Shown: piece by piece, positions 1-36,010 of the stretch
Layout: the number at the start of each line of letters is the position of its first letter
Position numbering within the stretch: the stretch's first letter is position 1
The notes under the pieces: model-generated
Seen by the model: the letters and a program-made list of their open reading frames with translations, nothing else
Database searches by the model: none
What the model was told of the DNA's origin: nothing
Source: Psammoneis japonica
Lineage: Eukaryota
Length of the DNA stretch: 64,000 bases
NCBI GenBank assembly: GCA_008632985.1
Contig: QPGO01000114.1
Coordinates: 186,001-250,000 of the forward strand
Direction: 5' to 3'
Translations under genes and position numbers: made by a program

Positions 1-3000
1 GGCAGGGGAAGAAGCCTTCAGCTTGCAGGCAGTCGGCGAAGCGCTCGTGCCAGCGGAGACCGGAGCTGCGCAGTCCACACAATGCCTTGTGGATGACAAG
101 GATGTGTCCTTCGAGTTTGCCGAACTCGGGTCCAGCTACAATGTAAAGCTTCTCCTTGGTGGTGGCTTCAAGGCAGGCATTGCCAATGTCGGTGGCCCAT
201 GTCTCCAACTCGTTGAGTTCGGCCAGGAAAATCATCAGCCGAAGGCCACGGAGGGAGACTGCTCCGGAGCAGACACTGTCGACAGGTGCATCCGTGAGGT
301 GCCCGTCGGCTGCGAGTCGTGCCTTGTGGCGACCGTCGTGTTTCACGTCGCACACTGGGTGCACTCGGATCTTCTTGTGTCCCGCAGGAGGAGTGGAAGA
401 CTTGAAGGGCCCGCAGTCATGGAAGACTTCGTATTCGTCGAGTTGGTCCATCTCGAGATCAGTTGCGTCTCCCCACTTGCGATTGCCGTTGCATTCGTCC
501 AGTGACATGGCGTGTTTGCAGTTTCGAGGAACTTCGCATCCATGCTTGCAGTGAGGTGCAGTGCGGAAGGAGCGAAGCTTGGCTTGGTTGGCCATGCGAA
601 GTGGCTTCTTTTGGCGCCTCGCGATGGTGCGGAACTGCTTCCAGCCATCCGTGTCGAGGAGTCCGTTCTCTCGTGCATAGATGGCACAGGTGACAGGGTC
701 GTCCTTGGCGATGATGGCAAGAGGCTCGGACGTGATCTCCCCACTTTCCCATTCAAGCATGATGTTGTAGCTGGAGCCTTTCCAGGTTGGGTCGTGAGGC
801 TTCAGAGGTCCTTCGTGCGACACGATGCGTCGAAATTTCCAAACAGTGGCATCTTCGTCTTCTTGCTCAATGTGATTCATGATGTCATTGCAGGCAAGGA
901 CTTCCTCGCATTCGTCATTGTTGACAGAGCAGACGAACTCAGTGAGCTCGGGATTGCCGTTGACTTTCCATTCGTGGTCTTCGACGGCCTTGACGATGCG
1001 AGCTCTGTGGCGTTGTCCGTCCTCTTGTGGCTGCATGAGGAAGGCACGTCCAATGATGTCTTGCGGATCGAAAACTGGCATCTTGGGTGTCCTGATCTCC
1101 CCATCAGGAGAGTCGACGGGGTTGTCGTCATGGCGAGATTTGATGATGGGTTCAGGTGGCTCCCCATCAGGAGGATCAAGACGCAGGTTTCGAACGGCAG
1201 GATCGGGGGTGGCGGAGCGGACGTTGGACCGGCAGAGGATCTTCTGAGTCTCGTCAGATAGAATCTTGAAGGTCATCTGGTGGCCGACATGCTCAGCAAT
1301 GCCAACGAAGCGTCCACGCAACTCACGGGATTCAGACGGCCAATCGGAGTCATCGAGGTGGAAGCACATGGGTTCCCACCAATGAAAGCAAAGCAACGGG
1401 CTGATGTCCGGGGTGGAGCCAGTGAGAGTCTCGAGGGGCGTGCGCCAGTGGAGACGTGGGGACGCTGTGTGGTTGAGCATGAAGCACACGCACATGAGCG
1501 CCAGCAGCCATGCATGGGCGGGCGAACCAAAACGATCCATGACAGTGTTCGCCATGCGCTTCACGGTCTGGTGTCGACGTTCGGCAAAGTTTTGGTGTTG
1601 CTGGTGAGGCTCACTTTGCCAGCTAGAGATGAAGAGGGCGCGCAGGATCCCGAGCACTTTGTTGCTGATCTCAACTTGAGCACGGTTGCCAATGAGTTTG
1701 GATGGGGCACCACGTTCACGGATCTGATCCTCGAGTGTGTTGACAAACTCTTTGTCTGTCTCAGTGCCGCAGACGTCAGTGACGGCAGACTCGGTGCCAA
1801 CAAACAGTTGGGCGCTGGTGCAACCAGAGTCGACGGCCGGGGTGTCGGCACAAACGGTGTCAGTGGCGACAGGCTCGTTGCGGCGGTGCACATTGAGGGC
1901 GGGGTTGGGTGATTTGTGGGCCTTGCGAAGGTGTGCACCGGCGGGCATGCGGGCGCACTGCGTGGTGCAGTCAAAAGTACGACGGACCGCATCGGCAGGT
2001 GAGAAGCCAAAGCAAGGCCGAAGAGACTCGAAGGGGGGGTCCTTGGGCTGCACAGTGCGCGCCGGAGGTGGAACGTCGTCGCCCTGGGGGCCAATCGCAT
2101 GCAGATGACACTCGCAGAACACGTCGTCGTTCGGAATGAGGTGATCATCGAGGGCGGACGCGTGATCGGCAGACAAGGAAGCGGACATGATGGTCTTGTT
2201 GACAACGACACGATGACGGCAGTTGCCGCATTCGTCAAATGGGTTGGCAGTGGGATCGTCCTGCAGGTCAGAGATCGCGTCGTGCCACTGGTCGTCGTCA
2301 GCGACAGAGTGATCGAGGACGGAAGGGTCCCATGTGTCATCACCGGTGAGGATGACATGGGGCAGGGTGTCCCATTCGGCGTCAGTGCAAGGTCGCATGG
2401 CAACATGAGGCAGGCCGGCCTTGATGTCAATGGGGATGACATGGCCATCAGGAGTGGCAATGTGTTGCAAGCCGTTGGGCACCTTGACAGAGCGATCATT
2501 GACATCCTGTTTGCACCATTCGAGCTGGCCGCAGGAATGGATGGTCTTGCCCTTGCCCGTGCATGCGCACTGATGGAGGATGGCGATGACGGGACCACGC
2601 TGGGTCTCAACAACGGCACCAGTGGTGACAATGGGGATGTCCACCAATTGATGATCGTCAATGCCCTGAACGTCGACTTGGCGAGAGGTGCGTGCAATGA
2701 CGCAAACGTCGTCGCCAGCAATGCCGCCGTTGGTCCCACGATCGACTAGAGCACCAGTGCGTGTGGAGCGATGAGCAGAGGCAGAGCAAATGACATTGTG
2801 ATTGTCAACGCGGCGGCAAGTGCGGCCGTTGAGTTCCATGTCATCTGCAGAAGCTGGCGGGGCAGAGGAAGCGGCGGATGGCCCCGGTCGACTGGCATTG
2901 TGGGCTTGGTTAGGAGACAACAGACGTTGCAGATCACTGGGTGGCAGTGGCTTGCGCTTGGTGAGGTGTGCCAGGATGGGATTGTCCGAAGTGGCGCCCG

Positions 3001-4438
3001 CATGTGGAGCGGAGTCACCAGAGTCAGCAGGAGTCGTGTTGGACAAGTTGACATCACCGTCAGTCCCAAGGCGTTGGTCATGAAGGTTGGCCGTAACAGA
3101 CTCATGGTGGTCACTGGCTCGCGGGTTGCAGGGAGGTGGGCGAGAATGCTCAAGGATGATCGCCTTGGAGGAATCGGGCAACGAATCCCAGAGCCGTTGG
3201 TGGTCGGGAGGGAGACGTCTCCATTGGACACCGGCGAGGCTGGGACCGCGGGTGCAGGCAGCATTGGCCTGAAGGACGTCAACGTCGCTGTCAATGTCGC
3301 AGAACACATCATCGGACGGTTCCTCGGAGCAGACGTCATGTGCGTGTGTGGCGCGTCGGGGAGCTCGAGGTGTCATCTTGGGTTGAAACGTGCTGTCGCA
3401 CTGAGCTGCCGCGGAGAGGAGCAAGCCACAGTGTTGATCGTGTGTGAGGCTCTTGCCACTCTGCGTACGATGCTGATCAGCTTGGCTCTTGACAGCACGG
3501 AGTTCCTCGGCAGGGTGCACGGCATTCTCGAGCATGACGCGCTTCTGTCCTTCAGAGAAGTGGTCGCTGGCCGGGATGAGTGCCTCGCACTTGCGCAACT
3601 GATCTTGCCAATGAAGGATGAACCCGTGGGTCGGACCTTTCCAAGTGCCATCACCAAGACGCGCGGTGGTCAGGTGCATGAGCAGGGTGGAGGACTCGAC
3701 AGATGCGCGGGTGGAGGCAAGCGCGCACTCAGACAAGGAGCGGTGGACGGTCTGTGCGTCAGAAGACCCCACATTTTCGCGAATGAGAGCTTTGCCCTTG
3801 TCGGTGAGGAGGATGCGTTCGAAGACGGCGAACATGCACTTTTGCTGTTCAGCAAAGAGCAGTTTGTCTTCGGGGCTGGTCGGTTTGTACGACGAGTTTA
3901 GAATGCACTCGACGTCTTGGGCACGGGCTTGTGCCACAAGTGAGGTGTGCCAAGTGTGCCACTGCTTGTCGGATTTGAGAGCCGTGAAAGCGGTGGGATC
4001 ATGCTTGATGCCTCGCTTGAAGTCCCGCACCGGGTCGCGTGCCTTGGTCGGGTTGGTGACATGTGGAGGTGCAAGGGGTGAGCTGCCGATGGACACAGAA
4101 GACATGCAGTCGGGGCTGAGGCGGCAGGCAAGGAACTCGTCATGCGTGAACAAAGAGGAGTCGTTGGCAACGTCAAGACCTTTGTGTGCTTTGACAATGT
4201 ACAGACTGACTGGTGCTGCTGACATGTTCTTATAACCACGGGGCAAAGGGATCACATCAGTGCCATTGTCACACTCAAGCGAGTCGATTTGGGACGGTGT
4301 GAACGTGAACAGTTCCTGATGCGAGTCCGTGCCGTCTTGGGCCAAAGCCAAACGAAGAGGACTCCCAGCACCTTGGGCAAGCACGGTTCCAACCACATGC
4401 TCGAAACCATCGGTTTGTTGCTGACGAGTGAGAACCAT
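1..4438 (-). CDS. copia gag-pol polyprotein (partial, Tyr-depleted; probably inactivated by missense)
   Basis: ATG at 4438 (MVLTRQQQTDGFEH). The KALCGL codon at 77-79 is in the same frame, and the ORF track lists no stop-terminated ORF in this frame, consistent with one open frame to the window edge. Confidence 0.75.
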   Translation of the reverse strand, partial: MVLTRQQQTDGFEHVVGTVLAQGAGSPLRLALAQDGTDSHQELFTFTPSQIDSLECDNGTDVIPLPRGYKNMSAAPVSLYIVKAHKGLDVANDSSLFTHDEFLACRLSPDCMSSVSIGSSPLAPPHVTNPTKARDPVRDFKRGIKHDPTAFTALKSDKQWHTWHTSLVAQARAQDVECILNSSYKPTSPEDKLLFAEQQKCMFAVFERILLTDKGKALIRENVGSSDAQTVHRSLSECALASTRASVESSTLLMHLTTARLGDGTWKGPTHGFILHWQDQLRKCEALIPASDHFSEGQKRVMLENAVHPAEELRAVKSQADQHRTQSGKSLTHDQHCGLLLSAAAQCDSTFQPKMTPRAPRRATHAHDVCSEEPSDDVFCDIDSDVDVLQANAACTRGPSLAGVQWRRLPPDHQRLWDSLPDSSKAIILEHSRPPPCNPRASDHHESVTANLHDQRLGTDGDVNLSNTTPADSGDSAPHAGATSDNPILAHLTKRKPLPPSDLQRLLSPNQAHNASRPGPSAASSAPPASADDMELNGRTCRRVDNHNVICSASAHRSTRTGALVDRGTNGGIAGDDVCVIARTSRQVDVQGIDDHQLVDIPIVTTGAVVETQRGPVIAILHQCACTGKGKTIHSCGQLEWCKQDVNDRSVKVPNGLQHIATPDGHVIPIDIKAGLPHVAMRPCTDAEWDTLPHVILTGDDTWDPSVLDHSVADDDQWHDAISDLQDDPTANPFDECGNCRHRVVVNKTIMSASLSADHASALDDHLIPNDDVFCECHLHAIGPQGDDVPPPARTVQPKDPPFESLRPCFGFSPADAVRRTFDCTTQCARMPAGAHLRKAHKSPNPALNVHRRNEPVATDTVCADTPAVDSGCTSAQLFVGTESAVTDVCGTETDKEFVNTLEDQIRERGAPSKLIGNRAQVEISNKVLGILRALFISSWQSEPHQQHQNFAERRHQTVKRMANTVMDRFGSPAHAWLLALMCVCFMLNHTASPRLHWRTPLETLTGSTPDISPLLCFHWWEPMCFHLDDSDWPSESRELRGRFVGIAEHVGHQMTFKILSDETQKILCRSNVRSATPDPAVRNLRLDPPDGEPPEPIIKSRHDDNPVDSPDGEIRTPKMPVFDPQDIIGRAFLMQPQEDGQRHRARIVKAVEDHEWKVNGNPELTEFVCSVNNDECEEVLACNDIMNHIEQEDEDATVWKFRRIVSHEGPLKPHDPTWKGSSYNIMLEWESGEITSEPLAIIAKDDPVTCAIYARENGLLDTDGWKQFRTIARRQKKPLRMANQAKLRSFRTAPHCKHGCEVPRNCKHAMSLDECNGNRKWGDATDLEMDQLDEYEVFHDCGPFKSSTPPAGHKKIRVHPVCDVKHDGRHKARLAADGHLTDAPVDSVCSGAVSLRGLRLMIFLAELNELETWATDIGNACLEATTKEKLYIVAGPEFGKLEGHILVIHKALCGLRSSGLRWHERFADCLQAEGFFPC

Positions 4439-5361
4439 GGCAGACAAAAGTAGTGTCAGGACAATCAATTCTGGTTGGGAAGAGAAGGTGGACTCGAAAC
4501 TTGGGTGAGAATGGACTTGACTTGAAATGGACTTGACTTGAAATCTTGAACTGTCTTAAAATCAGAAGTCACCGGGCTTTGTTGTCCCGTTCGTTGTCAA
4601 GTGCTAAACTTCCTGTCCGGTCCGCAGAGTTGTGCCGGCACGTCCGAACCCGCAGCCAGCGGCGCTTTGGGTTGCTTGCGAGCGGAGCAGCGGGTTGTAA
4701 ACCCCTGCAGGCAAGCTGACTGGAGGTGGACAAGACCCCCGAACCATTCTCATTTTATGTCGGTTGGATTTCCCGATCAGGCTGGCCAGTTGACGCAGGC
4801 GTCAGGCGCTGTGGACGAACGAACAAATGTGGGAAAGCACCCTCGCCCCAACGCAGGCTGCAATCACGGCTGCTTGCTCTCACAGTCGTCCTCGTGGACC
4901 TGGTGGAACTGCAGAGCACCAGCAGTCCGGGGTGGATCAGGTGCAATGGACTCGGTGTGCCTGCAGAGTGGCAGCAAAACCGCAGTCCGAAGAGTGGGTG
5001 CAGGTTCTTGGCCGTGAAGATGTGCATGCATGTGTGTGTCTTCAGCGACGAAGATCCTTGAACATGTGGGGTTCTTGACCGTTAACCGATGAACAGGCAC
5101 ATCAAGGGATGAGGATCAAGGACAGACTTGGATGTGACCGTTGAGTGCATGTCTTCAGCGGTCAAAGGTGGCATGATCAATCCAGACATCCAGCGGCAAG
5201 GAGACTTGACGGTGACGTTAACTTCCTGCCGATGCCCTGGTGTCGAATGCGCGTAGACTTGCCGATGTATGTAGAACACACACGGGGTCCACGCAGAATT
5301 GAAATGGCGTCGTTGGTAAATCAACGACGACGATGGCGGTTGCTCAATGGGTTGACAATGA

Positions 5362-5376
5362 GCAAGACTGTTAATC
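5362..5376 (-). promoter_or_regulatory. Primer-binding site of copia copy 1 (complementary to a tRNA-Asn anticodon arm)
   Basis: Plus strand reads GCAAGACTGTTAATC and abuts the LTR; identical to copy 2. Confidence 0.6.
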
Positions 5377-5650
5377 TGACAGAAATTGAAGGCAAATGGC
5401 AAGAATTCAAACAACAACTCCTCACTGCTGTCTAAATGGCAGATGAGTCTCCGCTCAGAGACCGTCACAGGAGCCGAGAGACGTGTAAGTCGGCACAATC
5501 GGGCCACTGTCATTATTCTTGTGAGCCTTGTGGCTCGAAAGCAAACTACATCGCGCGTGAACGCGCGGAACTAAAGCACACAAAACTGTGCACGGCAAAC
5601 CAAACAGCGCGACACTTCGCGCGCACCCAAATCCTGTTCAAATCATGTCA
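5377..5650 (-). repeat. 5' LTR of copia copy 1 (TGACA...TGTCA)
   Basis: Matches 48005-48280 and 54837-55113 in reverse complement. Confidence 0.93.
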
Positions 5651-5769
5651 TCGACATCCGATCAACTCTGTGTGATCGTTCTGTCCTTTGCACGCATCCA
5701 CGACTGTGGTGCGATTGACATGCAAATGACATGCAATCATGGACATGTGCGTGACAGTCGCATGCTGCA
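5651..5769 (-). repeat. Retained part of the gypsy 3' LTR (TpA-mutated)
   Basis: Ungapped match to 10026-10144 with 14 differences. Confidence 0.88.
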
Positions 5770-8700
5770 TTCGCCTCCCCAATTGCACATTAGAGTCATT
5801 TGCAAGTGGATTGTTCGACGGACATCGACAGTGTCAATGATGTCTCCACTTTCACTGCATTGTGCCATTGGCAATGACTGTTGTTGTTTTGTGTGGGCAA
5901 CACAGGGCCATTCCAATTTCCGGGTGTCTTTTGAGAGTGACATTGTTTGTTTCTCACTTGACATGCATGTGTGTGGTGTTGCGTCGAGTGTTCTCATTGA
6001 CGTTCTTGTTGATGTGAACACAAGGACTAATTGTCCTGGAGCAAGTGTTTCTCCTGACATCGATTGTGCATGGCATCGTGCCCAGTGCTTAATGTGCGCT
6101 CTCAATTGTGGCGTTCACTTGCTCACTTGTGGATTTCATGTGGTTTGGCGGGCTCACTTTACATGCCACATTGCTCTGCTGCACTGCCACGTTTCACAAG
6201 TGACAACAAACGATGGTCAAAGACATCACGACCATTTCGTCTTGACAATCAATCCTGTGATGGTCATGAGTTCCATTGTGGATTTTTTTTTTTGTGCTTC
6301 AACCATCTGTCAGTTGGATTTTAATCGTTGTTTGGACGTTTCTTTCTGACATGCCGGTGCCATTTTGTCATTCCGAAGGCACTGCTTTCGTGCACCAAGT
6401 GGACAAATGTCCATTTTTCTTTTCTTTGTCTAGATCTTTGGCACATCTCGTGTGTCGACATGATGTGTGTTTTAATGTCTTGCCTCGCACATTGTACAAT
6501 GCAACCGTGCGGGTGTTGTGAGATTGTCTTTTGCCAGTGTGAAGTGGATGCGTACAATGCATGCCAATCTGTCACTGTTTTTTTCCTAAATCGTCCTTTA
6601 AAAAGGCGATTTTGTCCTTGTGACATGAGCATTTTTCGATCTCGCTCGCCTCCACGAAAAGTGTTCGTATGATGTGTCGCGTCCGACAATTTGGAGGGAA
6701 TGTCTTTATCCCGTTTTAACGGCAGGACATTGTCGTAGGATTCAATTTTCTACAGTAAGTCGGCTGATCGCGTCTGTCACGACGATGTTCGCCTTGCTCT
6801 CGCTGTGTTTTAATTCGGGGCTGAAGTTTTCCATTGCAAGTCGTCAACGTGTGACTTTGTCCGTTGTGTCTTATGATCCGTGTGCACACAAATGTGTTGG
6901 CCAAACAGCACATTTCGGAATTTTACAAGTGTTTTCACCATGGACAGAAGTTCTTTTTTCCGTTGTAACGTGTGACATTGAAATCCGTGCATGACAACAA
7001 CGCAGTTTTTGATTTGATGCGCTCCACATTTTCGGAGACTTTTCGTTCTGTACTTGCACTTTTGCCGTTTGACCTTTGTTGAGGTGAATTTGGCTGGCAT
7101 TGCACAGGAGATCGTTGAGACTGCATGTCTCGACAACAGCAACGTATGACAACGAGATGTCGCAGTGTTCTTTGCGTTTTTCTCGTGTTGCGATTGCTTG
7201 AATCGCCTCCATTTTCTTTGTAATCGATTGCATGTCGTTGCGCATGGAAGTCTTGACAGTTTTTTTTCAAGTCAAACAGTGAAGGACTTTTGTTGTCAAC
7301 CTTCTGAGCGACTGTTTTAGTCGTTTGAATGCCGCACTGAGCTGTCACTTGCACAGGTGACATTTTGAAGTCACTTTTGTCAGGCACAAACGATCACATG
7401 CAGTCGTTCTGACAACTTCAAACCTGTTGTGAGTTCACTCAAGTGTTGCACAAAAATGTCTGGGGCTCCACAGATTCTCGTTGGAAGTCCACAGCACTCA
7501 TTTTCTCCCCACGGCATGATTTTCGTGTGAGCACGACGTGTGCTTTTTTTATTTGACATGGTGGCATTCCATGTTTGAATCAAACAGATCACACACATGA
7601 AACGTTCTTGCTTCAACAGCATTTCCTGAACATTGGGCAAAGGATGCACCACCTGCATGAACCTTGTGCTGAGCTTCTGAGTGTCGGGTGCGGTCAAACT
7701 CGACCTGTTTTCTTTGGACAATGAGTCTCAGAGCGACTTGTTCAGAGCAATTTCATTCTTAAGACTTCAATCTTTCACAATGGGTCAAACTCCTTTTGAT
7801 TGGACGCCTCCAAAGACTGTGACAGGAGAAGGTTCTCACGCGTCGTGGAATCGCGTCAGATTTTCCACGATGAGATCCACTGATGCTTCCCATGCATTCG
7901 TCTGAGGAACTTTTCAAAACGATTTCAACCTCTTAAGAAGAAGATTGAGTTGGTTGTGTTCATTTGGGTTAGATGCATCGCCGTAGTTGTCACTTGATTA
8001 AGATCGATGGCGTGATGATGTGAGTCGAGGACCATTGGTTCCGTTATTAACTCTATTCACGGCGTCATATTTTTCAATGTGATCGGTTTTCAGCTTGAAA
8101 ACATCGGCATCGAAGAGTGTATGAACATTCTTCATAAGGTAATTGCTTCTTCCCATTAGATTTCTTCATTTGCGTAGTCCAATATGACTTGTAGGACTGG
8201 ACATTAAGTCGCGTCCCATGATCATATCATTTGAACCTGAAGAAAATTTGGTGTTTTCAACATATACTGTTTGGATATCAGTATGCCTTAAATTTCGCAT
8301 AGTGAGAACTGAATTCGGTGTTTACTATCAGTCGTAAAGAGCTCACCCTCGGTTTCCCAAGTTTTTGGTGGCGGATTCTTGTGTTCTCAACTTTCGCACG
8401 AATTTGCGCAAAATTATGGTTGACGATGTTCCGTTATCGATAGGAACACGTAGATGCTTTTTTTTTCTCTCCTTTCCCAAGGAAGTATTCATATAAATGA
8501 TGACTCCTGGACTAGTATGAATTATTTCTGCCTTTTTTCTAGGCTTCCTAATATCCAGTAAAGCATATAATTCGTGAATAGACCAAAATTATTCTTCGGA
8601 TTCAGTCTGGATCATCCGATCAAATTGGTATTTTTCTTCACTGAGGGTATCAGAATCTGATTCTTTGCCCTTATGCTCTTTTTCTTTGTTCAAGGAACTC

Positions 8701-10025
8701 GCTTTGAGTATTTTTTGAACCGCCTGATCAATCATGACGTTCATCTCTTTTTTTGCGAGCGGCATTTTCGTTATCGCGACGCGACCGCGTGCGATTGCCA
8801 TTTGAACGGCGCATTTTTGGGTCTCTTTCAGAGTCACCCTTGCACTCTTTTGCTAGTTCATTTTTAGAATAGCTTCAATCCGTGATGTAGGTATTCTTTT
8901 TTCAAAGATAAGACCTTGCATTCACTTTGGATTGTTCTGGCACCATGTGGGAGACCATTTTTGGAACCAAATTTGGAACCTTTTTTATTTTGGAACCAAC
9001 TGCGCTATCAGAGCCTGAGTTGATATGTTTTTTCGTCACGGACGTCATGAACGACCTTTAGATGACTCAAAACTTAATCAGCTCATCAAGGATGAGTTGC
9101 AATAGTTGATTGTTTTGGACAGTAGACTGATGCTGCCATCCTTGCGGTGCGAGTGATAGCTGATAAATCAGCGCTCGGTTTCCCGCTAGATTCGACTTAG
9201 AATCCATCTGAGGGTCGCATAGACTCTCATCATTGACCTCTTGGGTCTAACAGAGGCTTTCTTGCTGTCAAGCAGCTCTGGTTTCTTCAGATCGTCTTGA
9301 AAAAAATAATTCTGATTCTGAAGTGCAATTCTTGGAAAGACATGAGACATGAGACTCTTGAGGTACTTTCCAACGGTTCCATCTTGCCCTTGGACTCGAG
9401 GCTCGTTGATTCGGTCTCCAAAAACTCTCCAATAGTCTCTCCTTGCATACCAGACGTATTTCTCGGACCTGATCGACTCGGAACTTGCATTCTCTGCAAC
9501 CATGACTTGGTGTAGATTTTTTGATAATGCGGTGTACTTGAAAGCCCTTGATCCTTGGGTGCTTGGAATAGACCGTATTAAAGCGAATCCTCTTGTCTGG
9601 TAGACGAAAAACAGCGTTCCATCTTGAGGTACTGCTCGGCTTGAGCTTCTTCCGCTCGGAAATCGATTCCAGCAGAACTGATGCGATTCGTTCCTGTTTA
9701 TAGAAGAATTTACAAAGGCACATTAGTTAAAATTTTCATTTTCCGTGCTTTTTACCTTCTGTGGTGTGTATACACAATGCACTATGCTCGAAGAACGAGT
9801 GTAAACGAAAGTAGAATAGTGTACGAAAAGTGGAAATTATAAGATTGAATTTTGCTCTGTGATTTTTGGTTTCTCCGAACGAGTTCTCAATGGCCTAAAG
9901 CTTCTGTACTGCTTCTACAGACAAAAGGCCTTTCGGAGAATATATTCGTGACAACAGATTGTCCGGATACGATTGCTATTGACACGTAAGATGTCAACAT
10001 CGTCAATCGATCGTATTTGCAATTC

Positions 10026-10144
10026 TCGACATCCGATCAACTCTGTGTGATCGTTCTGTCCTTTGTACGCATCCACGACTGTGGTACGATTGACATATAA
10101 ATAATATATAATCATAGATATGTATATAACAGTCGCATGCTGCA
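10026..10144 (-). repeat. Part of the gypsy 5' LTR (TpA largely intact; inner boundary not determined)
   Basis: Ungapped match to 5651-5769. Confidence 0.85.
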
Positions 10145-11396
10145 CTCTTTGCACCACATGTGACAAAGCCAAAAACATGGGCTGAGAAACACAGACAGAG
10201 CCAGGTTCAGCTCAACTGGCCACCCAGAATTCAAGCAGGGGTGCAGCCGGAATGAAGAAGGCTGCAGGTCAATTTGAGGTCCCAGTGGGAACTTGCTTTG
10301 CATGTTTGTTGACAGCCTGCTGCAGAAGCCATGGCTGCGCTGGAAACCCAAAGGTGGCGGTGCGTGATGGGGCAGATCTCGCAAATTCTCACAAGATTTT
10401 GTGATGCATGAGGCCAAAATTTGAGTGCAGCATCTGACAGCATGGGTGGGGAAGGCCAGTGCTTGTTGCCAGCGATCTTTGTGAAGATCTTTTGAAGAGG
10501 ATGACACTGCATTTTCTCGCTTTTGGAAACTTCAGAGAATTGTTTGAACACAGTGGGGCCAAACCCGCCAAAGTGTGCATTGAATTTTGGAGAACAAAGA
10601 AGACACAGATCTGCAGCAGTGGCCAAGCTGGCGGGGCAAGGCTCAGAAAACAAACTGCCCAAGAAGCCGTGGCGGGCTGGCAGCAAAACACTCCTCACAA
10701 AAGATGCCGCTGTCAAGCTGCCACAGACTGACAAAACTCCACAGTCGCATGCTGTGGGAGCTTTGCTGTAAAAGCGCAAAACCACAGCGCCTCAAGTCAC
10801 AGGTAGACAAGCTGCTTTGCAGGCAGAAGCCCAGCCAAGGGCCGCAAGTTGACAGCCCCACACAGTGTCTTCTCTTTTTCTCCTTTTTCCTTCTTTTCCT
10901 CTCTCTCTCTTCTCCTTTCTCCTTTTCAGTGTATTCTTCTGGGCCGCCTCCGGCGGCCACCTCTTTTATTCTTCCCACATGCTGAAATCTCCTGGCAGGA
11001 AGGGCTTCATGAGAGAGGTGTGATCCCTGTGCATCGATCACGCGCACGCACCAAGTCAGGGGAAGGCGTCGCGTGTGCACGATGCACGGCACGCGTTTAG
11101 AGCTGGTGACGTGTTCGCATGATGTCTTTTAAACCCGACTGACGTCCTGCCATTTTTAGAGAGGTTTGACACGGCGGAAGTTTTCTCATTTCTCATTACA
11201 TGTTACTCGTACCTATTGTTCATTTACCATGAGGTTTCTGTTGCATGCTGCCAAAATTCCATGCGTCGTTCCAAAAAATAATGCTGTGGAACGAGGTGCG
11301 ACTCCTGCTCTCTGTGCTCTGCTAGAGAAACCTACCGTTCAGACCGTCAGGACTCTTTCGCCGTTAGAAAATAAGCAAAATGACACAAAAAATGCC

Positions 11397-12188
11397 ATGA
11401 AAGCATGGGGACAGCAATGTTCTCCGTCGTGCGGCTGCGTTGTTCGATTTGAAACTAACGTGGATACAGAGACAGACACAATTCTGGATGCATCTTATCA
11501 TGCCAAGACGATTATGACAACGGTCGTGAACGGAAGGTTGGAGCCGATCCGCACCGAACGTACGCAACGACCACTGGTGACAGACTGCAAGTGTAAAACA
11601 CTCCACGAATTAGCTACAGTCGTATCCAAGTCAATTGAATCTGAAAAATTATCGACGGTGCGCAACATGACGGAATTTCGTGGCGTTCGTTCTTCCGTTT
11701 CCTTTCGTCGTGCTGTCTTGAACCATCATGAACTTCCCCGAACAGACACGCATTGCTTTGATTTGCTTGAAGAAGCCTTTCTTGCCATGGTTCGAGGACA
11801 CATGCCCAGCCCTAGACGAAGAACATTGAATATGGAACGGGTCATGGAAGAAAATCAAAACCAACAGCACGAATCTTCTCCACAAACAGAAAGTGACGAG
11901 AGTGGGAGCTCAGGCAGCGGCTACCGGTACGGAATGGATCGGACCAGCATGTCCATGTCGTCGTCATCATCTTCCAGTGCCATGTCGGCGTTGCAGCTGC
12001 TTGATCTCGACCCAGAATTGGCCTACGCAGGAGCCCCCGTTTCCAAACATGAGTACAAGGATTTGCTAGAGCGACAAGAGCAAGTTGAAAACTCTCACAA
12101 CGACACTGCTCCTCGCATCTTGGACTGGGAGTCCTACGTGGATGAAATGACGCGTGCCCAAGAGGATGCAGTGGAAGATGCGGTGTAA
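11397..12188 (+). CDS. Hypothetical protein with weak IscU/NifU-N-like N-terminal motif
   Basis: Normal codon content (Tyr present). CSPSCGCVVRFETNVD..TILDASY loosely resembles the IscU PxCGD..L.IKV..I.DA.F segment. The start could be upstream (11229). Confidence 0.6.
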   Translation: MKAWGQQCSPSCGCVVRFETNVDTETDTILDASYHAKTIMTTVVNGRLEPIRTERTQRPLVTDCKCKTLHELATVVSKSIESEKLSTVRNMTEFRGVRSSVSFRRAVLNHHELPRTDTHCFDLLEEAFLAMVRGHMPSPRRRTLNMERVMEENQNQQHESSPQTESDESGSSGSGYRYGMDRTSMSMSSSSSSSAMSALQLLDLDPELAYAGAPVSKHEYKDLLERQEQVENSHNDTAPRILDWESYVDEMTRAQEDAVEDAV

Positions 12189-12384
12189 GCATTGTTCATA
12201 ATTTCATTCTTAAAATAATAGAGATTTCATTAGTTGTATTCTGTTAGTTCCTTCTGACCTCGAGCTGTTGCGTTTTTGTTTGCAACTCTTTTGCGCTCTT
12301 CTCATGATTTTATAAGTCGGTACTGCTGCGCTTAACTTTCTACAACGCTCTGTGATTCGTTGTTCTACTATTTTCTATTTCGTT

Positions 12385-13389
12385 TTATTTAGAGGTTATT
12401 GTGATTACTGTCCCTGGTTCTTTTTGTCGTTCAGGAGAAACAATTTCGCCGACCATATCCTTTTCCTGTGTATAATACACAAGCGGCCAGTCATGTCCAA
12501 AGACCTCGGGTGGACGAATCGACGTGACATCATAACAAACCGCAAGAGAAACGGGAGCATTGGTGGATGGAACGGGATCGTCCGTGTTTAGAAATTGCTG
12601 CGTGTAATTGGCGTCCTTGCCGTAATTTCGGTTGCCATACTTTGGTGCAATCACACCGCGTTGACAAAAAGGATCCAACAATGTCAATTGTACATTGACA
12701 ATTGGTTGTATGGATTTGAGTTGAGAAACAGCCGCGTCTGCAGCAAAGGCACCCACGGAAATTCCAATGAGATGAATGTTCTGAATCTTGTTTGACTTGC
12801 TCAGTAGTTGCGTTGCAATTTCTCGACCAATGGCCTCTCCATTGAAACTAGCCTGCAACAGATTTTGGGATGCTGCACTCCAATCCACCATGGCGCGGAA
12901 TCCTTGTGTTTTATTGCCGAGTGTTTGCATGAGAGCGTCAGTATAAATGTCTTGTCCACCAGCTCCGTGAAAGACCAACGTCACGTCTTGAATGGAATCG
13001 TCCCAAGACGGCAAGGGAGGTTGAATAAAGTACTCTTGTCGTTGTTTACTACTTCCAGATCTAGAATACCATTCTCCCAATACAGGGAGAGCAATTATGG
13101 CACCGCCAATCACTTTGAAAACACCTCGTCTTGACAATTCCCCGTCCTTGCCACCTCCGCGAGTTGAAAAGAGTTGAGTAAGAGAGGGTTCCGCCACAAT
13201 GCTTCTCCTTGTTTGCACCCAGCCTTGTTGAGCTCCTATTCTTGCAGCCGCCACGAGATTTGATGATACTTGATTGCATAATCGTGGAGGAAAAGCCGCT
13301 GTCAGCATGTTGTGTTGATTGCTCGTCAATGTCAACACCAACACAAGCGCTCTTGCTGTACCGGTAGTAGGACAGCAATGTTTCATCAC
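12385..13389 (-). CDS. Alpha/beta-hydrolase (lipase-like), predicted plastid-targeted
   Basis: VFHGAGG, nucleophile elbow HLIGISVGAF, TLLDP and GHDWP. Hydrophobic signal ending TAAF-P (ASAFAP-like), then SRRGVF twin-arginine-like segment and a hydrophobic helix. Confidence 0.82.
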   Translation of the reverse strand: MMKHCCPTTGTARALVLVLTLTSNQHNMLTAAFPPRLCNQVSSNLVAAARIGAQQGWVQTRRSIVAEPSLTQLFSTRGGGKDGELSRRGVFKVIGGAIIALPVLGEWYSRSGSSKQRQEYFIQPPLPSWDDSIQDVTLVFHGAGGQDIYTDALMQTLGNKTQGFRAMVDWSAASQNLLQASFNGEAIGREIATQLLSKSNKIQNIHLIGISVGAFAADAAVSQLKSIQPIVNVQLTLLDPFCQRGVIAPKYGNRNYGKDANYTQQFLNTDDPVPSTNAPVSLAVCYDVTSIRPPEVFGHDWPLVYYTQEKDMVGEIVSPERQKEPGTVITITSK

Positions 13390-13841
13390 AAATTATAATT
13401 GATAAAGAGGATTAGTCCTTTATGTCTTGTTGTTGATGGCTCGGCTGCTATCGTGAAAAGCGATAGCCATCAAGCGGCTTCACCATCGCCATCACTTCGT
13501 TGTTATTTGAGTGCGCACCCCACGAGAGAAAAAAATGAGAGCAAAAAGTCGTGAAGACGTCATCGGATCTTACGCGAGCAAGTACGTCACACCTTGTTAC
13601 GTAGCTTTCAGTACCAATTTGTGTATCGTAAACTTAATACCAATTCCTACGTGTCTCCAACTTCAACAATTCAAATTTGGAAATTTCGACGTCAGCATTT
13701 GTGACCCATCCGATCGAAACAACTCCGAATTTGCCAAGTGTCGCTCGCAAAAGAAGAATTCCGATTGGGCGTTTTGTTGTTGTCAGTCTGCCAACAACAG
13801 CAACAAAAAACAAAACGAGAAACGTACGTTGCTTCTCAGCC

Positions 13842-15305
13842 ATGCCGAATCATCCTACTGATAATGACGTTGTAACCAAGGTGTTGCACAGTCTCATGGA
13901 AGTTGTCGATGCTCTTGTGGAGCTCTATCTAGGCAAGGTGATTGCTCCCTTTCTCAAGTTGCACGAACGTTTCTATTCTCGTCTCAACGCCGTACTACGG
14001 GGCTTGCTGGACGACAATGCCGTTCCCGACTGGTTTACGGCCAATTTCATCACGTACGCACGAACCCTCGTGGTGATTCCCACCATTTTACTCTTGGCAT
14101 GTGGTCAACGCGTCTTGCCAGCCATTCTGGTGTTGTTGGTGGACTTTGGAGACTTTCTGGACGGGGTAGTGGCAAGGTATTGGGTGGATAAAAAGAAGGA
14201 ACGAAAAGAGCAAATGGATAAGCTCTTCGAGAAGAAGAATGATGATGCACCGAAAAAGAACAAGGACACACCATCGTCTTCAGATGATGATTCGTATGGT
14301 AGGAACAACTTCTTTCTCAGAAACGAATGATTGTCTGAGAATTATGCAAGTACGTCTCACTTTTCTGTGTACTGTGTTCTTGTTTTGCAGAAGTCGTCAC
14401 GACTGGATCGGCTCGTGTCATTCCATCCTGGTCCAACAGTCACCGTGCCAAACAATACGGTGGCTTCGTCGATGCCGTGTGCGACAAGGCCTTTGTGGTG
14501 CCGTGCTGGATTTTTCTCATGTCGTCCACCGTGTCGTCCTCGAGCTGGCGCATCAATTGGTTGCAGTACCTGGTCTTGTGGTGTTTGATTTTGGCAGAAT
14601 CCGCGTCGGCTACCATTCGCTTTCGTGCCTTCTTCTTGTCGGGTGGAGTGTCGGCACCCAAGGTTCAGGGATTGGATTTCTCAACGAGTGCAGTCAAGGT
14701 GTGTAATACACTGTTGCTGAGAACGATCTTTTTTGTCTGATGCGGATAAATCCCAGTCTCACTCCTTGCTCTCTCAATATGTCGTATCAATATGCTTTTG
14801 CCCACAGGCCGATCATATTGGCAAGGCCAAGCAGACGTTTGAAATGGTTGGCACGACCCTTTTGATTTTACCCAGCGTTCTCAAATATGTTGGATTGGCT
14901 TTTTTGACGGCTGCCGTTCCCTTGGCGTATGAATCGGTCCGTCGTAAAGTCAAGAAGCGAACCATGTATGTCAGCACGGCTGCTACCGGTAGTAAATTTG
15001 ATCACTCGACACTCAAGTTTTGGATGCAAACCAAGTCCATGGGTTCCAAATTGGTTGTAGGCGTCAATGACAAGGACATGGTGTTGAATGCATGTGCGGC
15101 GTCCAGTGTGGATCAAGTCATTGTGGAGGCTCCGCAGAAGGTGGATTTGATGTTTTTGGAAAAGTTTGGAATTGATTACGTAGTTGCCACGGTGGGACAA
15201 GAGGGGCTCGTGACGCAAGAGTTGATGGCAGCCAACCGTTGTTTGATGTTACAAGGGGAGATTGCGCAACCTCTTTTACCAAAGCAAGATGTACACAAGG
15301 ACTAA
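13842..15305 (+). CDS. CDP-alcohol phosphatidyltransferase with C-terminal cytidylyltransferase-like domain; 3 exons (13842-14298, 14391-14698, 14808-15305)
   Basis: ANFITYAR and DFLDGVVAR...YGGFVDAVCDK form the CDP-AP motif, followed by GKAKQ. GT-AG introns keep the frame. C-terminal SKLVVGV...VDQVIVEAP..VDLMFLEKFGIDYVV is cytidylyltransferase-like. Confidence 0.85.
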
Positions 15306-15519
15306 GAAGAGGAACGCTTTTTGTTGATAAAAGACCGAGCGGGAAATGCCGATCTACTTATTTGTGAACGAGCTCTGACACAGAAAAGCGCTGTTGTTAG
15401 TTGCGCTGTTGTTAGTTGCAAGAAAAGCGAAAACACGTTGTCCTTCTGTACCGTTTCTGTTATAATAATAAGCTACTCATGCATTGATTGTTCTTGGAGT
15501 TTGTATTATAGAGTATTTC

Positions 15520-17427
15520 TTATAATATTATGCGGAGCACAACGGTAGACGAGATTATGCCAATAGCCCAAACAAAATATGCTAAGCCCACGCCGTATCG
15601 TACTCCGGCGCTCCGTGCGCCGGTCGGTGCCTTTGTGCTTCTGGCTCCCAGCTCGTAACCAAAAATCCCATCAGGATCGTAGACTGCATCACCCTGAAGC
15701 AGCGTTGCAGCAATCTCGGCATTCTTTATATCGGCTGGCGCCATGGAGAAAATATCATCGTTGAGAATGACCAGATCGCCAAACTTGCCCACTTCGATAG
15801 AACCAGTCTTGTCGCTGTGCTGCAACAGCTTTGCGGGATTCAGCGTCATAAAGAGGATTGCTGTTTCCAAGTCTGACAAGGACTTTCCATTGGGACGTGA
15901 CAATAAGGTGCTCAATTTGGTTAGCGGAGAGAGCTCACCGGCATCCCAGTCGCTACTAATCACCACTATAGCTCCAGCTTTGTGCATTTCGACCACGGGA
16001 ATTATGGAAGCCGCACGATTGTTTCCAATCAAGTCGTTTGCCAAAAAATTTTCATATTCCAACGTGGCAGTGCTCGGAGCAAGTTGAAAGTCAGCCACTA
16101 CATTCAAAGAAGCAAATCGTGACTTGTCTTGCTCTGCCACCATGTACACGTGCGTCAATCGATGCTGAATGTTACTTGTCGTTGACGCTTCAATAGCATC
16201 CAATGCCAAACCAGCTGCACGATCGCCAATGACGTGGAAATTCAATTGAAAGCCTTCATTGATCAGGGTTTGAGCAACATTCGTCAAGGTTGCAGCGTCG
16301 CCAAAGTACTCGAACCCCAATTCTTCTTCATTGGAGAGTCCCAGCGACGGCAAGTACGAATCATACAATGCAGCTGTAGCGAGTGACAAGATACCGTCTA
16401 CGTAAATCTTGGCTTGATTGAATCGAACCAAGGCATTTGGATCATTGGTGAACTTTGATTTCAAATCATCAAGTTGGTCTTGAATGGGCGTGTCTGGGTA
16501 AATGTAGAGACAATTGCTGGCTCTGACAGTCAACATGTCGTTTGACTCTGCTCGCGCCCAAGCTTCTGTTTGTGCTTGACGCCCGTACCCACCAGCATCA
16601 CTTACCGTCGTAATTCCATTTGCAGCCAACACTTCCAGAGAGCCCAACAGAGCTTTGTATGCCGCATCCTTGTTGGCTTGGGTGGGTGGGAAGGATGCGT
16701 CGCGCAGTGGCTGTTGCGCATTCTCTAATACAATACCAGTTGGTCGATTGGTGTCAGGGTCAAGGTCAATAATACCACCAGGTGGATCCCCCGTTAAACG
16801 GTCGTACCCCACAATCTCGAAGGCCCGAGAATTAGCAACCGCTCCGTGTCCGAGGCTATCAACAATAAGCACCGGAGTATCCGGATACGCTCGGTCCAAG
16901 ATTGTTATAGGATAATCCAAGTTGAAATCATTCTCTAAACTCTCCCATATGAAAGCAATATCAATACCAGCACCCATAATCCATCCCTGGTCTCCAAATT
17001 CTCCGCCATTTTCGCATTCGTTTTCGAATATGAAGGGAATGTCACGTATGTCAACGTCCTCGGGAATGTAGCAAAGGTTTCCAAAAATACCAGACTCTAC
17101 AGCATGCAAATGGACATCTTGAAAGCCAGGCAAAATCAAACGTTGGTTTAAATCCATGTATTCGACATTTGCTCCACCAGCAACGGCGGCATTGACTTGC
17201 GCTGCCGATCCCACAGCTATGATTTTGCCTTCGTCATCGATTGCTAGGGACTCAGCCCAAGGGTTGGACTCGTCAACCGTGTAAATTTTTGCATTTTCCA
17301 GAACCAATATTTCACCACATATTTCTGTTGGAATAATAATGACAGCCAACAAGAGCCACACCCAACTACAAGCGCAAGAAACAACTGCACGTGCACGTGC
17401 TGCTTCAGGACGAAAAAGGGAATTCAT
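15520..17427 (-). CDS. Amidohydrolase-3 (YtcJ-like) metal-dependent hydrolase, secreted or membrane-anchored
   Basis: ENAKIYT, LILPGFQDVHLH, KIYVDG, HVIGDRA, SSDW and GSIEVGKFGDLVIL. N-terminal signal peptide and hydrophobic C-terminus. Confidence 0.9.
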   Translation of the reverse strand: MNSLFRPEAARARAVVSCACSWVWLLLAVIIIPTEICGEILVLENAKIYTVDESNPWAESLAIDDEGKIIAVGSAAQVNAAVAGGANVEYMDLNQRLILPGFQDVHLHAVESGIFGNLCYIPEDVDIRDIPFIFENECENGGEFGDQGWIMGAGIDIAFIWESLENDFNLDYPITILDRAYPDTPVLIVDSLGHGAVANSRAFEIVGYDRLTGDPPGGIIDLDPDTNRPTGIVLENAQQPLRDASFPPTQANKDAAYKALLGSLEVLAANGITTVSDAGGYGRQAQTEAWARAESNDMLTVRASNCLYIYPDTPIQDQLDDLKSKFTNDPNALVRFNQAKIYVDGILSLATAALYDSYLPSLGLSNEEELGFEYFGDAATLTNVAQTLINEGFQLNFHVIGDRAAGLALDAIEASTTSNIQHRLTHVYMVAEQDKSRFASLNVVADFQLAPSTATLEYENFLANDLIGNNRAASIIPVVEMHKAGAIVVISSDWDAGELSPLTKLSTLLSRPNGKSLSDLETAILFMTLNPAKLLQHSDKTGSIEVGKFGDLVILNDDIFSMAPADIKNAEIAATLLQGDAVYDPDGIFGYELGARSTKAPTGARSAGVRYGVGLAYFVWAIGIISSTVVLRIIL

Positions 17428-18089
17428 GAGCCTTTTCTTTTTCTTCTTCCTGTCCAACTTTCCAATTCTCTCTCATATAAGGTCTCTTGGATCAAGTCAC
17501 AAAGCACCCATGACAATTGAAACGAATGGAGAGGTTGCTTGGCAACGAGTGACAGCGTCTAACACATCAACACAACAGTTGTTGAACATCCAATACCCTT
17601 ACTGCATCATCGACTACTTACAGTAGCCTGTGGTGTTATATAGAGTGCACGCGTGGCAGGTTCAAGGAGTGCATTGAATTTGGTTGCGCTTCTAATCTCA
17701 TGCGAGGTCTGGGTTTCGCTCGCGCAAGTTTTGATGACCCTGTCTGGCGCCGGATCGACTTGTCAATCTTGATTTTGGCTGTCTCGAACACTTGATGTGA
17801 GTGGCAGCTTGATCCAAGGCAACGGTGTTGCATCATCTCCACATGCACAGCTGGTCGGTCAGCATGTGTCTTGAGAGCGCCAAAAGCAGGGCTCGCCCTC
17901 CTGCGTGTGCCTGAGTTGCCACTGGGGTGCACCACAATGCACAAGGAGCTCTGAATGACACCTGTGTGGCTTCCCAACCAATCACATGGTGGGTGCTGAG
18001 GGCACCCAGTGTGGCTCTGCAAAGTGGGGCTGCTGCAACTCTTTGGTCTTTGGCGGTGAAGAAGACAGGCAACAAGGGCTGCTCAAACT

Positions 18090-19560
18090 TCAAAAGAAGC
18101 CTGGCAGCCATGCACACACAGTCTGCTCATGCACAGCAGACCCAACCAGCTGACAAGTGCAAGTCTGTCCCTCAACAAAGGAATGGACAATGCTGGGCCA
18201 GCTCTGATGAAAAGCCCGCATCTCAGCAAACCTTTCTTGGAATGGTGCACAAACCACTCAAAGCACAAGAGAGGCAAGGACCTGTCAATTTGAGCACCCC
18301 AGAGAAAAGCGTGCTGTCAACATCACAGTGGCTTCTGGAGAAGCTGTGCACCAGTCATGTTGATGTTCAAGAAAATGGCAGAGCATCAACTCCCAAAAGA
18401 ACATTCAGCTGACTCTCATGGCAACAACAAGGACAATGGTGTGCACTCAGCGGACATGCACAGGCTGTGTCCAGAAGGTGTTTCCACCGTTCACTTGTCT
18501 CACAGCTGGCATTTCCAGAGAAAGTCAACGCAATTGGACAACATTCATGCACTGCATTTCTGGGCAAAGTTGGGTTTCTTCTCATTTCTTGTTGTTGTGC
18601 CATGTCACAATGTTTTGTGACCCACACATGTTTTTGCTTTGAAGCTTCTGCTTGCGCTCCACCAACCACCAACAGCTTTTCTTGCAGGGCATGGCATGCA
18701 TGAAAAACTTGGTTTTTCTTGTGCAAGTTTTCATGACCCGCTTGAACAGAATGTGGTGCAGGCATTGTGTCTCCACAAGTGCAGCTGGTCAAAACGTGTG
18801 TCTTGAACTGGCAGCATCAGTGCAGAGACAGACCAGCAGTGCTGTCTTCCCAACAGGGGCATCTGGCACATGCACTGATCTGGGGTGAGAAAACAGGCTT
18901 CCTGAAAGGCCATGCAGCACTGTCCTGCAGCCCAAAAAGTGCCACGGTGCCAACAAAAAACACTTGCAGGATCAAAACCTGCAGCAGCCAGGCTCATTTG
19001 GCTCACAAACCAAATGAGAGTCAAAACGGGATTTCAGGTGCAGAAAAGATGGGCAGAACAATGATGCCACAATCTGACAGAGCAGGAGCAGCAAACAGAA
19101 AAACAAGCATGAGGACCTTTCTGCAAGCTGGCAACAGCAAACAACATGTCATGTGCCATCAAAAATGAGTGAGAAAAGACCTCAGAAAGATCTGCTCTGC
19201 CCCCATCCATCTGAAAAGGAGCTGACAGCCATCCACATGCAGTCTGCTCATGTGCAGCAGACCTGGTGTGAGCTGACAAGTGAGTCCATCTCAACACAGG
19301 AGTTGACAATGCTTCAGGCTTGCTGTGGCAAAAGGGCTGCATCTCAGAAAACCTTTGGAGTGGTGCACAAATCACTCAAATGCCTCAGAGCAAAATTTGC
19401 CCTCACAATGCTGGCTTCTGGAGAAGCTGTGTGCCAGTCATGTTGATGCTCAAGAAGATGACAGAATGTCAACTCCAATGAAAAACATGCTACAAATGGA
19501 CATGGCAACAAGGCAGTGTGCTTTCAGTTCACATGTGTGCAGGCTGTGTCCAAAAGAAGG
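18090..19560 (+). repeat. Diverged direct repeat pair (~18090-18480 and ~19210-19560)
   Basis: Shared strings cagtctgctcatg..cagcagacc, catctcag.aaacct, ggcttctggagaagctgtg..ccagtcatgttgatg.tcaagaa and aggctgtgtcca. Confidence 0.75.
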
Positions 19561-21790: not shown

Positions 21791-22049
21791 TTCTCTTCTC
21801 ACTTCTGTCCAGTTGGAGCAATGCACAGACCATTCCGAAACAGCCGCGAGCAACAGATTGCACAAGTGACTGACAAAAGCAGTCAAAAAAAAACATGTCA
21901 TTGGTTTTTGAGAGGTGGTTGCTCATTTTTTTCTCACCCTGCAAACATGGACTGCCAACACACATGATTTTTCAAAAAGTGAGACAAAACTTTGAGTGGC
22001 TGCATCGCCGCCATTGATTCCTCATTCACAGTGAAACACTCATGAGATT

Positions 22050-35610: not shown

Positions 35611-35745
35611 CTAGAGAGTTGTAACTACTGGCTCTACTAGAGCTCTCTAGCTAGAGAGAGTAGCTACTCTAGCTAGAGTCTCTAGCTACTTTAGTGGCAC
35701 CGGTAGAGAGTAGAAGTACGGCAGCTACACCGTGCGGTAGGGCGC
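35596..35745. other. CTAG/AGAGTAG low-complexity motif cluster at a domain edge
   Basis: ctctactagagctctctagctagagagagtagctactctagctagagtctctagctac; absent from the paralogous position near 39600. Confidence 0.65.
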
Positions 35746-36010
35746 GGGAATTCGTACACTGGAACTGACGTCTGCCAGACGATCGAGCGAAAACAAAAGA
35801 ATTTCGTGACGTGGCAAAATTCTGCTCACATTTTTTTTGGTCCGGAGAACAGAACAAAATACAAAATAAATCCATTTGGCATCTGTCTTCCCACATCACG
35901 TTTCGGCATCAAAGATCGTAATGCGAAAACCGAAACAAAGAGCTTCACTACTGAAAACAGACTGATTTTATCATTCAACCATGATTGGACATGCCGTGTT
36001 AAAAACCACC

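Follow-up and report, generated by a model that had tools for sequence, protein, structure and literature searches.

What kind of process could set two copies of one repeat apart at fourteen positions and leave every other position unchanged? The question is raised by a gypsy-like long terminal repeat (LTR) retrotransposon at positions 5651–10144 of a 64,000-nucleotide stretch of DNA deposited under Psammoneis japonica (assembly GCA_008632985.1, contig QPGO01000114.1, positions 186,001 to 250,000 of the forward strand); this whole stretch is called the window below, and all positions are counted within it. A preliminary description had taken two segments of the element for a gypsy LTR pair in which all differences fall on TpA dinucleotides. 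We consider it very probable that a directional, TA-destroying hypermutation of mobile DNA is real and that it struck half of this retrotransposon after insertion. The element and its surroundings comprise the following features.

5651–5769, minus strand: hypermutated LTR segment copy, from the 3' LTR of the gypsy-like element, truncated at 5651 by copia copy 1; 0 TA
5770–5780, minus strand: polypurine-like tract by sequence reading, immediately before the 3' LTR start; 10 of its 11 minus-strand bases are purines
6810–7271, minus strand: open frame with a Ty3/gypsy-type RT_RNaseH remnant (PF17917, 27.2 bits against a cut-off of 24.8, E 4.5e-06)
5651–8000, no strand assigned: stretch of the gypsy-like element poor in TA, 31 in 2350 bases, but with its CpG preserved
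8001–10144, no strand assigned: TA-normal part of the gypsy-like element, ~50 TA per kb, with a sharp change at the element end 10144/10145
10026–10144, minus strand: unmutated LTR segment copy, part of the 5' LTR, outer end (TG, minus strand) at 10144; 13 TA; multi-copy contigs agree with it
10145–10900, no strand assigned: older flank and insertion site of the gypsy-like element, TA-free and CpG-poor

A gap-free MAFFT alignment of 5651–5769 with 10026–10144 has 119 columns, 105 of them identical and 14 mismatched. There are 13 TA dinucleotides in the 10026 copy, which take up 26 positions, and none in the 5651 copy. All 14 mismatches lie inside these 26 positions (hypergeometric P = 1.6e-11), and the other 93 positions show 0 differences. 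Wherever the two differ, the 10026 copy has A or T and the 5651 copy G or C; in the latter, the 13 TA are read as TG (7), CA (5) and CG (1). The single TA to CG double, in which both bases changed as originally claimed, is located at 10125–10126/5750–5751. It creates an extra CpG, so that the 5651 copy has 8, next to 7 of 7 CpG of the 10026 copy that are kept. These counts bear out the preliminary description in its central points, the gap-free alignment, the confinement of all changes to TA of the 10026 copy and the preservation of every CpG, and the sequence strings it cited agree with the letters of the window. A self-BLAST match extends to 5772/10147 and adds a fifteenth mismatch; this base falls outside the common ...TGCA terminus and belongs to flank or internal DNA instead of the repeat. 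Scanning metagenomes for 23 consecutive invariant bases of the LTR gave 0 matches.

Do both segments belong to one element? Judging from the sequence, a single minus-strand element is likely, with the 5' LTR running downward from 10144 and the 3' LTR downward from 5769, because the RT_RNaseH remnant lies on the minus strand, the common outer LTR end reads TG on that strand, and the polypurine-like tract abuts the 5769 copy. The window includes 119 bases of the 3' LTR; the inner LTR end was not located, and no primer-binding site was recognised beside the 5' LTR. A Pfam scan of the six read-through frames of 5770–10147 revealed RT_RNaseH below threshold only, and above the cut-off once open frames were scanned separately; the reverse transcriptase and integrase domains RVT_1 and rve were detected neither in the six frames nor in the separate open frames of the element. 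The RNase H frame has 9 library matches at E<=0.001, and all four relatives that were scanned carry RT_RNaseH, one of them also Integrase_H2C2; a word-based search yielded no longer relatives. The designation as a gypsy LTR pair is thus supported in part, by one RT_RNaseH remnant, the polypurine tract and the TG terminus, with the amendments that the element is on the minus strand and that its target-site duplication lies beyond the window.

The truncation of the 3' LTR brings in a second family, of which the window contains two copies.

1–5650, minus strand: copia copy 1, truncated by the window start with about 1.5 kb beyond it, 5' LTR at 5377–5650, TA-depleted, sitting in the gypsy-like 3' LTR
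5651–5655, no strand assigned: TCGAC, predicted to be the right-hand target-site duplication of copia copy 1; its left counterpart lies beyond the window
48005–55113, plus strand: copia copy 2, LTRs at 48005–48280 and 54837–55113, target-site duplication TTTCC at 48000–48004 and 55114–55118; TA-normal in the first ~750 bases, TA-depleted in the remainder

The assignment to Ty1/copia follows from RVT_2 matches (E 1.7e-23 and 1.6e-09), LTRs of ~277 bp with TG...CA ends, and the 5-bp duplication TTTCC around copy 2. Homology between the gypsy-like LTR segments begins exactly at 5651, the first base past the terminus of copia copy 1. This start at the copia insertion point, together with the 5-bp duplication of copia copy 2, makes TCGAC at 5651–5655 the expected right-hand duplication. 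A contig of sequencing run X1 links 5651 to what lies upstream of 10013, separated by 12 letters, which shows that other copies of the gypsy-like family exist without the interrupting copia. Single-copy DNA has a depth of 65 in the same run, whereas summed contig depth reaches ~70,000–100,000 for copia and ~9,000–13,000 inside the gypsy-like element; the two families are thus very abundant, with roughly a hundred or more copies estimated for the gypsy-like LTR family. Differences among copies in this run are mostly transitions (571 places versus 70 with transversions).

By themselves, the 14 LTR differences fit repeat-induced point mutation (RIP; CpA/TpG to TpA) equally well. Direction can be read from the copia polyproteins. 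For the polarity alignment we used 40 of the 92 full-length (>=1600 aa) copia homologues among the 120 matches listed, and defined conserved-Tyr columns as those with Tyr in at least 80% of these 40 homologous polyproteins, which gave 44 columns. At these columns, copia copy 2 has Cys 20 times, His 12, Tyr 7, Phe 3, Ser 1 and a gap once (Cys or His at 32 of 43 aligned), and copia copy 1 has Cys 16 times, His 7, Tyr 4, Phe 3 and 14 gaps. The remaining conserved residues are largely retained (His 27/29, Glu 31/31, Ser 34/35). The overall composition of the copia proteins in the window is 0.4% Tyr, 3.7% Cys and 4.9% His, compared with 2.9–5.0% Tyr and 0.7–1.5% Cys in all 120 homologues listed. 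As read from these alignments, the copia TAY codons evidently became TGY or CAY. The equivalent test inside the gypsy-like element found a lone conserved Tyr that aligns with Thr, the remnant being too short and degenerate.

Comparison of the two copia copies with each other agrees in kind. Transitions make up 197 of their 200 mismatches, and 186 of the 200 fall within exchanges of pyrimidine–purine dinucleotides: 44 sites have CA versus TG, 51 have TA versus TG or CA, and 47 have CG versus TG or CA. Ten codons read His in one copy and Cys in the other where the consensus is Tyr; codon rows for residues 16–33 (the first ten) were excluded from this comparison because the beginning of the copia 1 frame is affected by an error of frame or alignment. 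The two LTRs of copia copy 2 differ at 16 positions, 13 of TA type and 3 of CpG type. Of the three copia LTRs, one reads TA wherever a non-CpG site varies (15 of 15), and 5 sites occur in the three states TG, TA and CA. Such three-state sites point to a TA ancestor, since TA is the sole state that links the other two by single steps. Seven copia CG sites are polarised by the protein consensus as ordinary CG to TG/CA decay, which reveals a classical second process alongside that at TpA; the gypsy LTR pair is untouched by it.

Base composition and multi-copy contigs speak for the same direction. TA rho is 0.59 around the TA-rich LTR copy, close to the 0.4–0.8 of host genes, and 0.13–0.28 in the DNA around the other copy; no 1-kb bin of the window shows a TA excess (rho at most 0.83). 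Contigs were taken from runs X1, X2 and X4 among four runs, all from one sample of one study and with no RNA run among those listed; X4 is of low coverage, and single-copy DNA has depth 0 there. Record 32 of X4, a 293-base contig of depth 12.2, matches 9881–10128 with 2 other letters and spans all 13 TA sites, and record 16 of X2 matches 9729–10055 with 9 other letters. Since multi-copy contigs agree with the TA-rich copy, the multi-copy form of the family is TA-rich, and the possibility raised at the outset that the TG/CA-rich version is the family consensus does not hold. The earlier proposal of an ancestral TA with A>G and T>C changes is therefore supported by three lines of evidence, the copia Tyr columns, the host-like TA rho of the TA-rich copy and the multi-copy contigs.

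The signature extends well beyond one family. It occurs in copia, in the gypsy-like element, in paralogous segments and in unannotated domains, in agreement with the preliminary view that the process is not family-specific; non-transposon paralogous segments and tandem repeats also carry it. In 1-kb profiles, copia bodies have 2–8 TA per kb with normal CpG. The domains at 18–24, 30–35, 44–48 and 60–64 kb hold 0–5 TA per kb with a TG/CA rho of 1.6–2.0; their CpG rho is 0.03–0.36, rising to 0.5–0.6 at 32–35 kb, and they have 2–20 CG per kb except at 32–35 kb. Repeats within depleted domains differ mostly by CA/TG exchanges (18, 11 and 7 sites in three pairs; a MAFFT pair of overlapping tandem-repeat stretches, 22388–23602 versus 22067–23268, was discarded as it aligned onto itself). 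The stretch at 18.7–20 kb is single-copy by contig depth. TA and Tyr content are normal in the genes for the amidohydrolase, the cyclase and the PhyH protein. In both 1-kb and 200-bp profiles, depletion shifts sharply at the insertion edges 10144/10145 and 48004/48005, which indicates that the flanks were converted before the elements arrived. The change thus runs from TpA to TpG or CpA, is specific to TpA, acts after insertion and spreads regionally irrespective of family.

How far does conversion go? The suggestion that it runs to saturation is correct for the 119 bases, where 13 of 13 TA are gone, and for older domains with 0–3 TA per kb; it does not extend to the mutated half as a whole, which retains 31 TA between 5651 and 8000. 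TA to CG doubles number 1/13 in the gypsy LTR pair, 0/13 in the copia 2 LTR pair, 0/51 in the copia pair and 0/41 in a paralogous pair. Arg, in turn, is found at none of the conserved-Tyr columns of copia, and one candidate double exists at a conserved Val column that reads GTG in one copia copy and GCG in the other. The double had been tentatively ascribed to both strands being hit in the same round; two such hits would normally end up in separate daughter duplexes, as TG and CA and not as CG, unless repair fixes both.

A literature search on the TpA to TpG/CpA signature returned a single description, a 2026 preprint on Bigelowiella natans, and what we take from it refers to its main text. 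Mutation-accumulation lines of B. natans gained 231 mutations in two integrated viral regions; 230 of them were A>G or T>C and each of these 230 hit TpA, at a rate of ~6e-7 per site per generation; this de novo rate is ~1000-fold over background and was seen in some lineages only (bioRxiv 10.64898/2026.01.13.699255). The targets presented are an integrated giant virus and a virophage, with many TpA left (rho 0.45), and Mettrop et al., 2026, proposed an ADAT2-like adenine deaminase (bioRxiv 10.64898/2026.01.13.699255). The terms LTR, copia and CpG have 0 occurrences each in that text (bioRxiv 10.64898/2026.01.13.699255). On this account, the two systems share near-exclusive A>G and T>C changes, all at TpA and yielding TpG or CpA, and a confinement to kilobase regions of foreign or mobile DNA with normal neighbouring genes. 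They differ in that the targets in the window are LTR retrotransposons and unannotated DNA, that 13 of 13 TA are converted locally with 0–3 TA per kb left in older domains, and that CpG loss accompanies TpA loss in older domains.

There are also parallels with better-known systems. Like RIP in fungi, the process hits repeated mobile DNA regionally, by transitions alone and at a specific dinucleotide, and leaves it crippled. However, RIP makes TpA from CpA, creates stops and lowers GC, whereas the process described here destroys TpA, cannot create stops and raises GC; moreover, a dependence on repeats would have to accommodate the depleted 18.7–20 kb stretch, which is single-copy by depth. With ADAR hyper-editing and APOBEC3 hypermutation in animals it shares deaminase-type editing aimed at repeats or retroelements. 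Those enzymes act before integration, on RNA or on reverse-transcription intermediates, whereas the substrate here is chromosomal DNA, as the two LTRs of one integrated element differ. The TpA context rule is also far stricter than that of ADAR. Decay of 5-methylcytosine at CpG converges likewise on TpG and CpA, and it is present in the window (the 7 polarised copia changes; a CpG rho of 0.03–0.25 in older domains), but it has another target dinucleotide and the opposite base change, and the gypsy LTR pair keeps 7 of 7 CpG.

We therefore weigh the following mechanism for the observed pattern. A single LTR retrotransposon on the minus strand, the one that carries the Ty3/gypsy-type RNase H remnant, would have contributed both segments, each being the corresponding part of one of its LTRs. 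Once it had inserted, hypermutation at the DNA level would have acted in kilobase tracts, turning TpA into TpG or CpA by A:T to G:C transitions on either strand. It would have converted the half of the element that adjoins copia copy 1 and left the other half untouched, with the 3' LTR segment losing 13 of 13 TpA and the 5' LTR retaining what is probably the family's original TA-rich sequence. The candidate chemistry is deamination of adenine to inosine in 5'-TA-3' by a deaminase aimed at mobile or foreign DNA, as proposed for B. natans; by analogy with that system, adenine deamination is most likely. As T>C and A>G can never make a stop codon, long open frames persist in the targets even though the replacement of Tyr with Cys or His ruins the encoded proteins.

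Several points weigh against this interpretation. That both segments lie in one insertion is likely and is deduced from the features named above, with the outer end of the 3' LTR and the target-site duplication situated beyond the window. The outgroup for the LTR itself is limited to contigs from the window's own sample. The outcomes at conserved-Tyr columns in the two copia copies are concordant at 16 and discordant at 5, above the ~50:50 division, so that part of the changes may have been inherited, or dictated by context, and not have arisen in situ. Run X1 may be the assembly source of the window, and it would then offer no independent evidence against an artefact. Lastly, a strict single-hit rule does not explain the one TA to CG double.

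Among the alternatives, a different chemistry behind the same process and direction survives best, and we regard it as unlikely. The thymine of TpA could be oxidised to 5-hydroxymethyl- or 5-formyl-uracil by a TET/JBP-type enzyme, pair with G and give T>C. TpA is self-complementary, so T>C and A>G are indistinguishable from the sequence. Oxidised thymines pair wrongly with G, and the T that some protists modify is preferentially that of TpA. Against this stands the sole published proposal, which is the ADAT2-like adenine deaminase (bioRxiv 10.64898/2026.01.13.699255).

Much further down the scale is a sequencing or assembly artefact, in which the TA-free tracts are not real but come from misread modified bases at the TpA (and CpG) of silenced DNA. 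The depleted tracts do resemble chromatin domains, and the sole run that contains the stretch comes from one sample of one study. However, an X1 contig of 9436 bases and depth 65 reproduces 10953–20000, including the TA/CpG-free 18–20 kb, with 0 differences, and accurate reads would be implied by the assembly of short exact words into contigs as long as 315 kb. If both strands were misread column by column, CG and TA should also be roughly as frequent as TG and CA, at odds with the scarcity of doubles in all four comparisons made above. Domain edges coincide with transposon insertion edges, and the same mutations arose de novo in Illumina-sequenced B. natans lines (bioRxiv 10.64898/2026.01.13.699255). 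We consider an artefact very improbable.

Equally hard to sustain is the notion that the changes precede integration, through ADAR-like A-to-I editing of an RNA intermediate or through diverged master copies, the segments then being LTRs of different elements. ADAR prefers a 5' U (bioRxiv 10.64898/2026.01.13.699255), 15 of 16 outcomes in the first 400 bases of copia copy 1 fall on one strand, and both the 16:5 concordance and the position of the target-site duplication outside the window would suit such a history. Yet one RNA templates both LTRs, and differences within an element therefore arise after integration; the LTR pair of copia copy 2, proven to be a single insertion by its TTTCC duplication, shows the same pattern (13 of 16 of TA type). 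The notion is also difficult to reconcile with zero non-TA differences between the two gypsy segments across 93 positions, with changes on both strands (7 TG, 5 CA) and with the signature in non-transposon paralogous segments and tandem repeats.

The least probable of all, and in our view scarcely tenable, is RIP or another C>T process acting on an ancestral 5651 copy to turn CpA/TpG into TpA in the 10026 copy: the 14 differences alone, as C or G against T or A at CpA/TpG, would allow it and C>T at CpG does occur in the copia copies (the 7 polarised cases), but replacement of conserved copia Tyr codons by Cys and His marks the TA-free state as derived, the TA-rich copy lies in DNA of TA rho 0.59 without the excess that RIP leaves, C>T would have created stops in copia frames that stay open over 1518 and 1709 codons despite 200 differences, the TG/TA/CA three-state sites need four C>T steps from CG versus two from TA, and multi-copy contigs agree with the TA-rich version. 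Fungal RIP was rejected as a model on the opposite direction of change, seen in Tyr columns and LTR states, and on the missing TA excess.

Returning to TpA-directed hypermutation, further observations concern its tracts, context and strand. In a paralogous pair near the PhyH-family gene (33624–37096 versus 38288–41042), the depleted state switches between the copies: 34390–35552 has 4 TA against 51 in its partner, and 35906–36709 has 37 against 3 in 39808–40602. Such swapped depletion shows that tracts start and stop independently in each copy. A 640-codon open frame at 33422–35344 on the plus strand lies in a TA-free tract and has 0 Tyr, 8.0% Cys, 4.8% His and no Pfam family; its diverged paralogous stretch at 38288–39573 has normal TA.

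Surviving TA in depleted 500-bp bins (n=101) are enriched in TTAA, at 17.8% compared with 4.1% in normal bins, and also in CTAA. ATAT, ATAC and ATAA are nearly absent among them, and a 5' neighbour A is found in 9% versus 28% (strand-symmetrised). This suggests a wider context preference in which ATA/TAT is most sensitive and TTAA most resistant. Over 5250–5650, the 5' LTR and leader of copia copy 1 on the minus strand, where copia copy 2 keeps TA, 15 of the first 16 converted sites are TG in sense and later ones are mixed. Tyr replacements overall are Cys in 36 cases and His in 19. There is a hint of runs on one strand in copia copy 1, whereas the gypsy LTR alternates (7 TG, 5 CA). The side of the 5' LTR is the less converted one in 3 of 3 elements, 48005–48750 and 8001–10144 being spared and 5377–5650 of copia copy 1 partly converted. 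This suggests a link to transcription or to a silencing domain, with three cases too few to test it.

Stop triplets in depleted bins are distributed as TAA 43, TAG 23 and TGA 704. TA-free DNA retains TGA as its sole stop, which leads to many long overlapping open frames on both strands, also in the copia bodies (1–5000, 49000–55000). A Pfam scan of 27 open frames, mostly from TA/CpG-free domains, assigned no family to any frame from the depleted domains, and Rfam and tRNA scans of the window gave no matches. The TA/CG-poor domains look like old mobile DNA at the end state of TpA hypermutation and CpG decay. Tandem repeat arrays occur at 20708–21792, 22067–23606 and 28876–29417, with units of ~200 and ~320 bases, two of them in TA/CpG-free DNA and one in normal DNA. 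As for the host, the best relative of the amidohydrolase among the matches listed is 59% identical, the best named ones are from the diatom Seminavis robusta at 50–53%, and no identical protein is among them; the source is thus probably not the sequenced B. natans strain.

Taken together, these observations support a new instance of the very recently described TpA hypermutation, here acting on chromosomal LTR retrotransposons after insertion and with locally complete loss of TpA. More tentatively, and with somewhat less than even confidence, we hypothesise that in an organism other than B. natans, possibly a stramenopile alga by its protein relatives, TpA hypermutation is a widespread genome defence that resembles RIP yet makes no stop codons. 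It would act on chromosomal retrotransposon copies in kilobase tracts, tend to spare the 5' LTR region, proceed in part by one-strand runs and, together with CpG decay, drive old mobile DNA to a TA- and CG-free sequence beyond the reach of annotation.

The locus provides sequence-level support, independent of the one preprint, for a eukaryotic A:T to G:C hypermutation at TpA only, a direction that runs opposite to every classical deamination defence. It widens the known targets from integrated viruses to LTR retrotransposons, and indicates an action after integration that is capable of removing every TpA locally. With 14 differences in 119 bases and zero background change, LTR divergence becomes useless for dating insertions in such genomes. 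There is also a trap for annotation: ruined elements look intact, as the 1709-codon open frame illustrates, spurious long frames appear on both strands, and heavily converted DNA evades homology-based annotation. For the search for the enzyme, the tract edges, the extended sequence context and the strand runs offer concrete handles.

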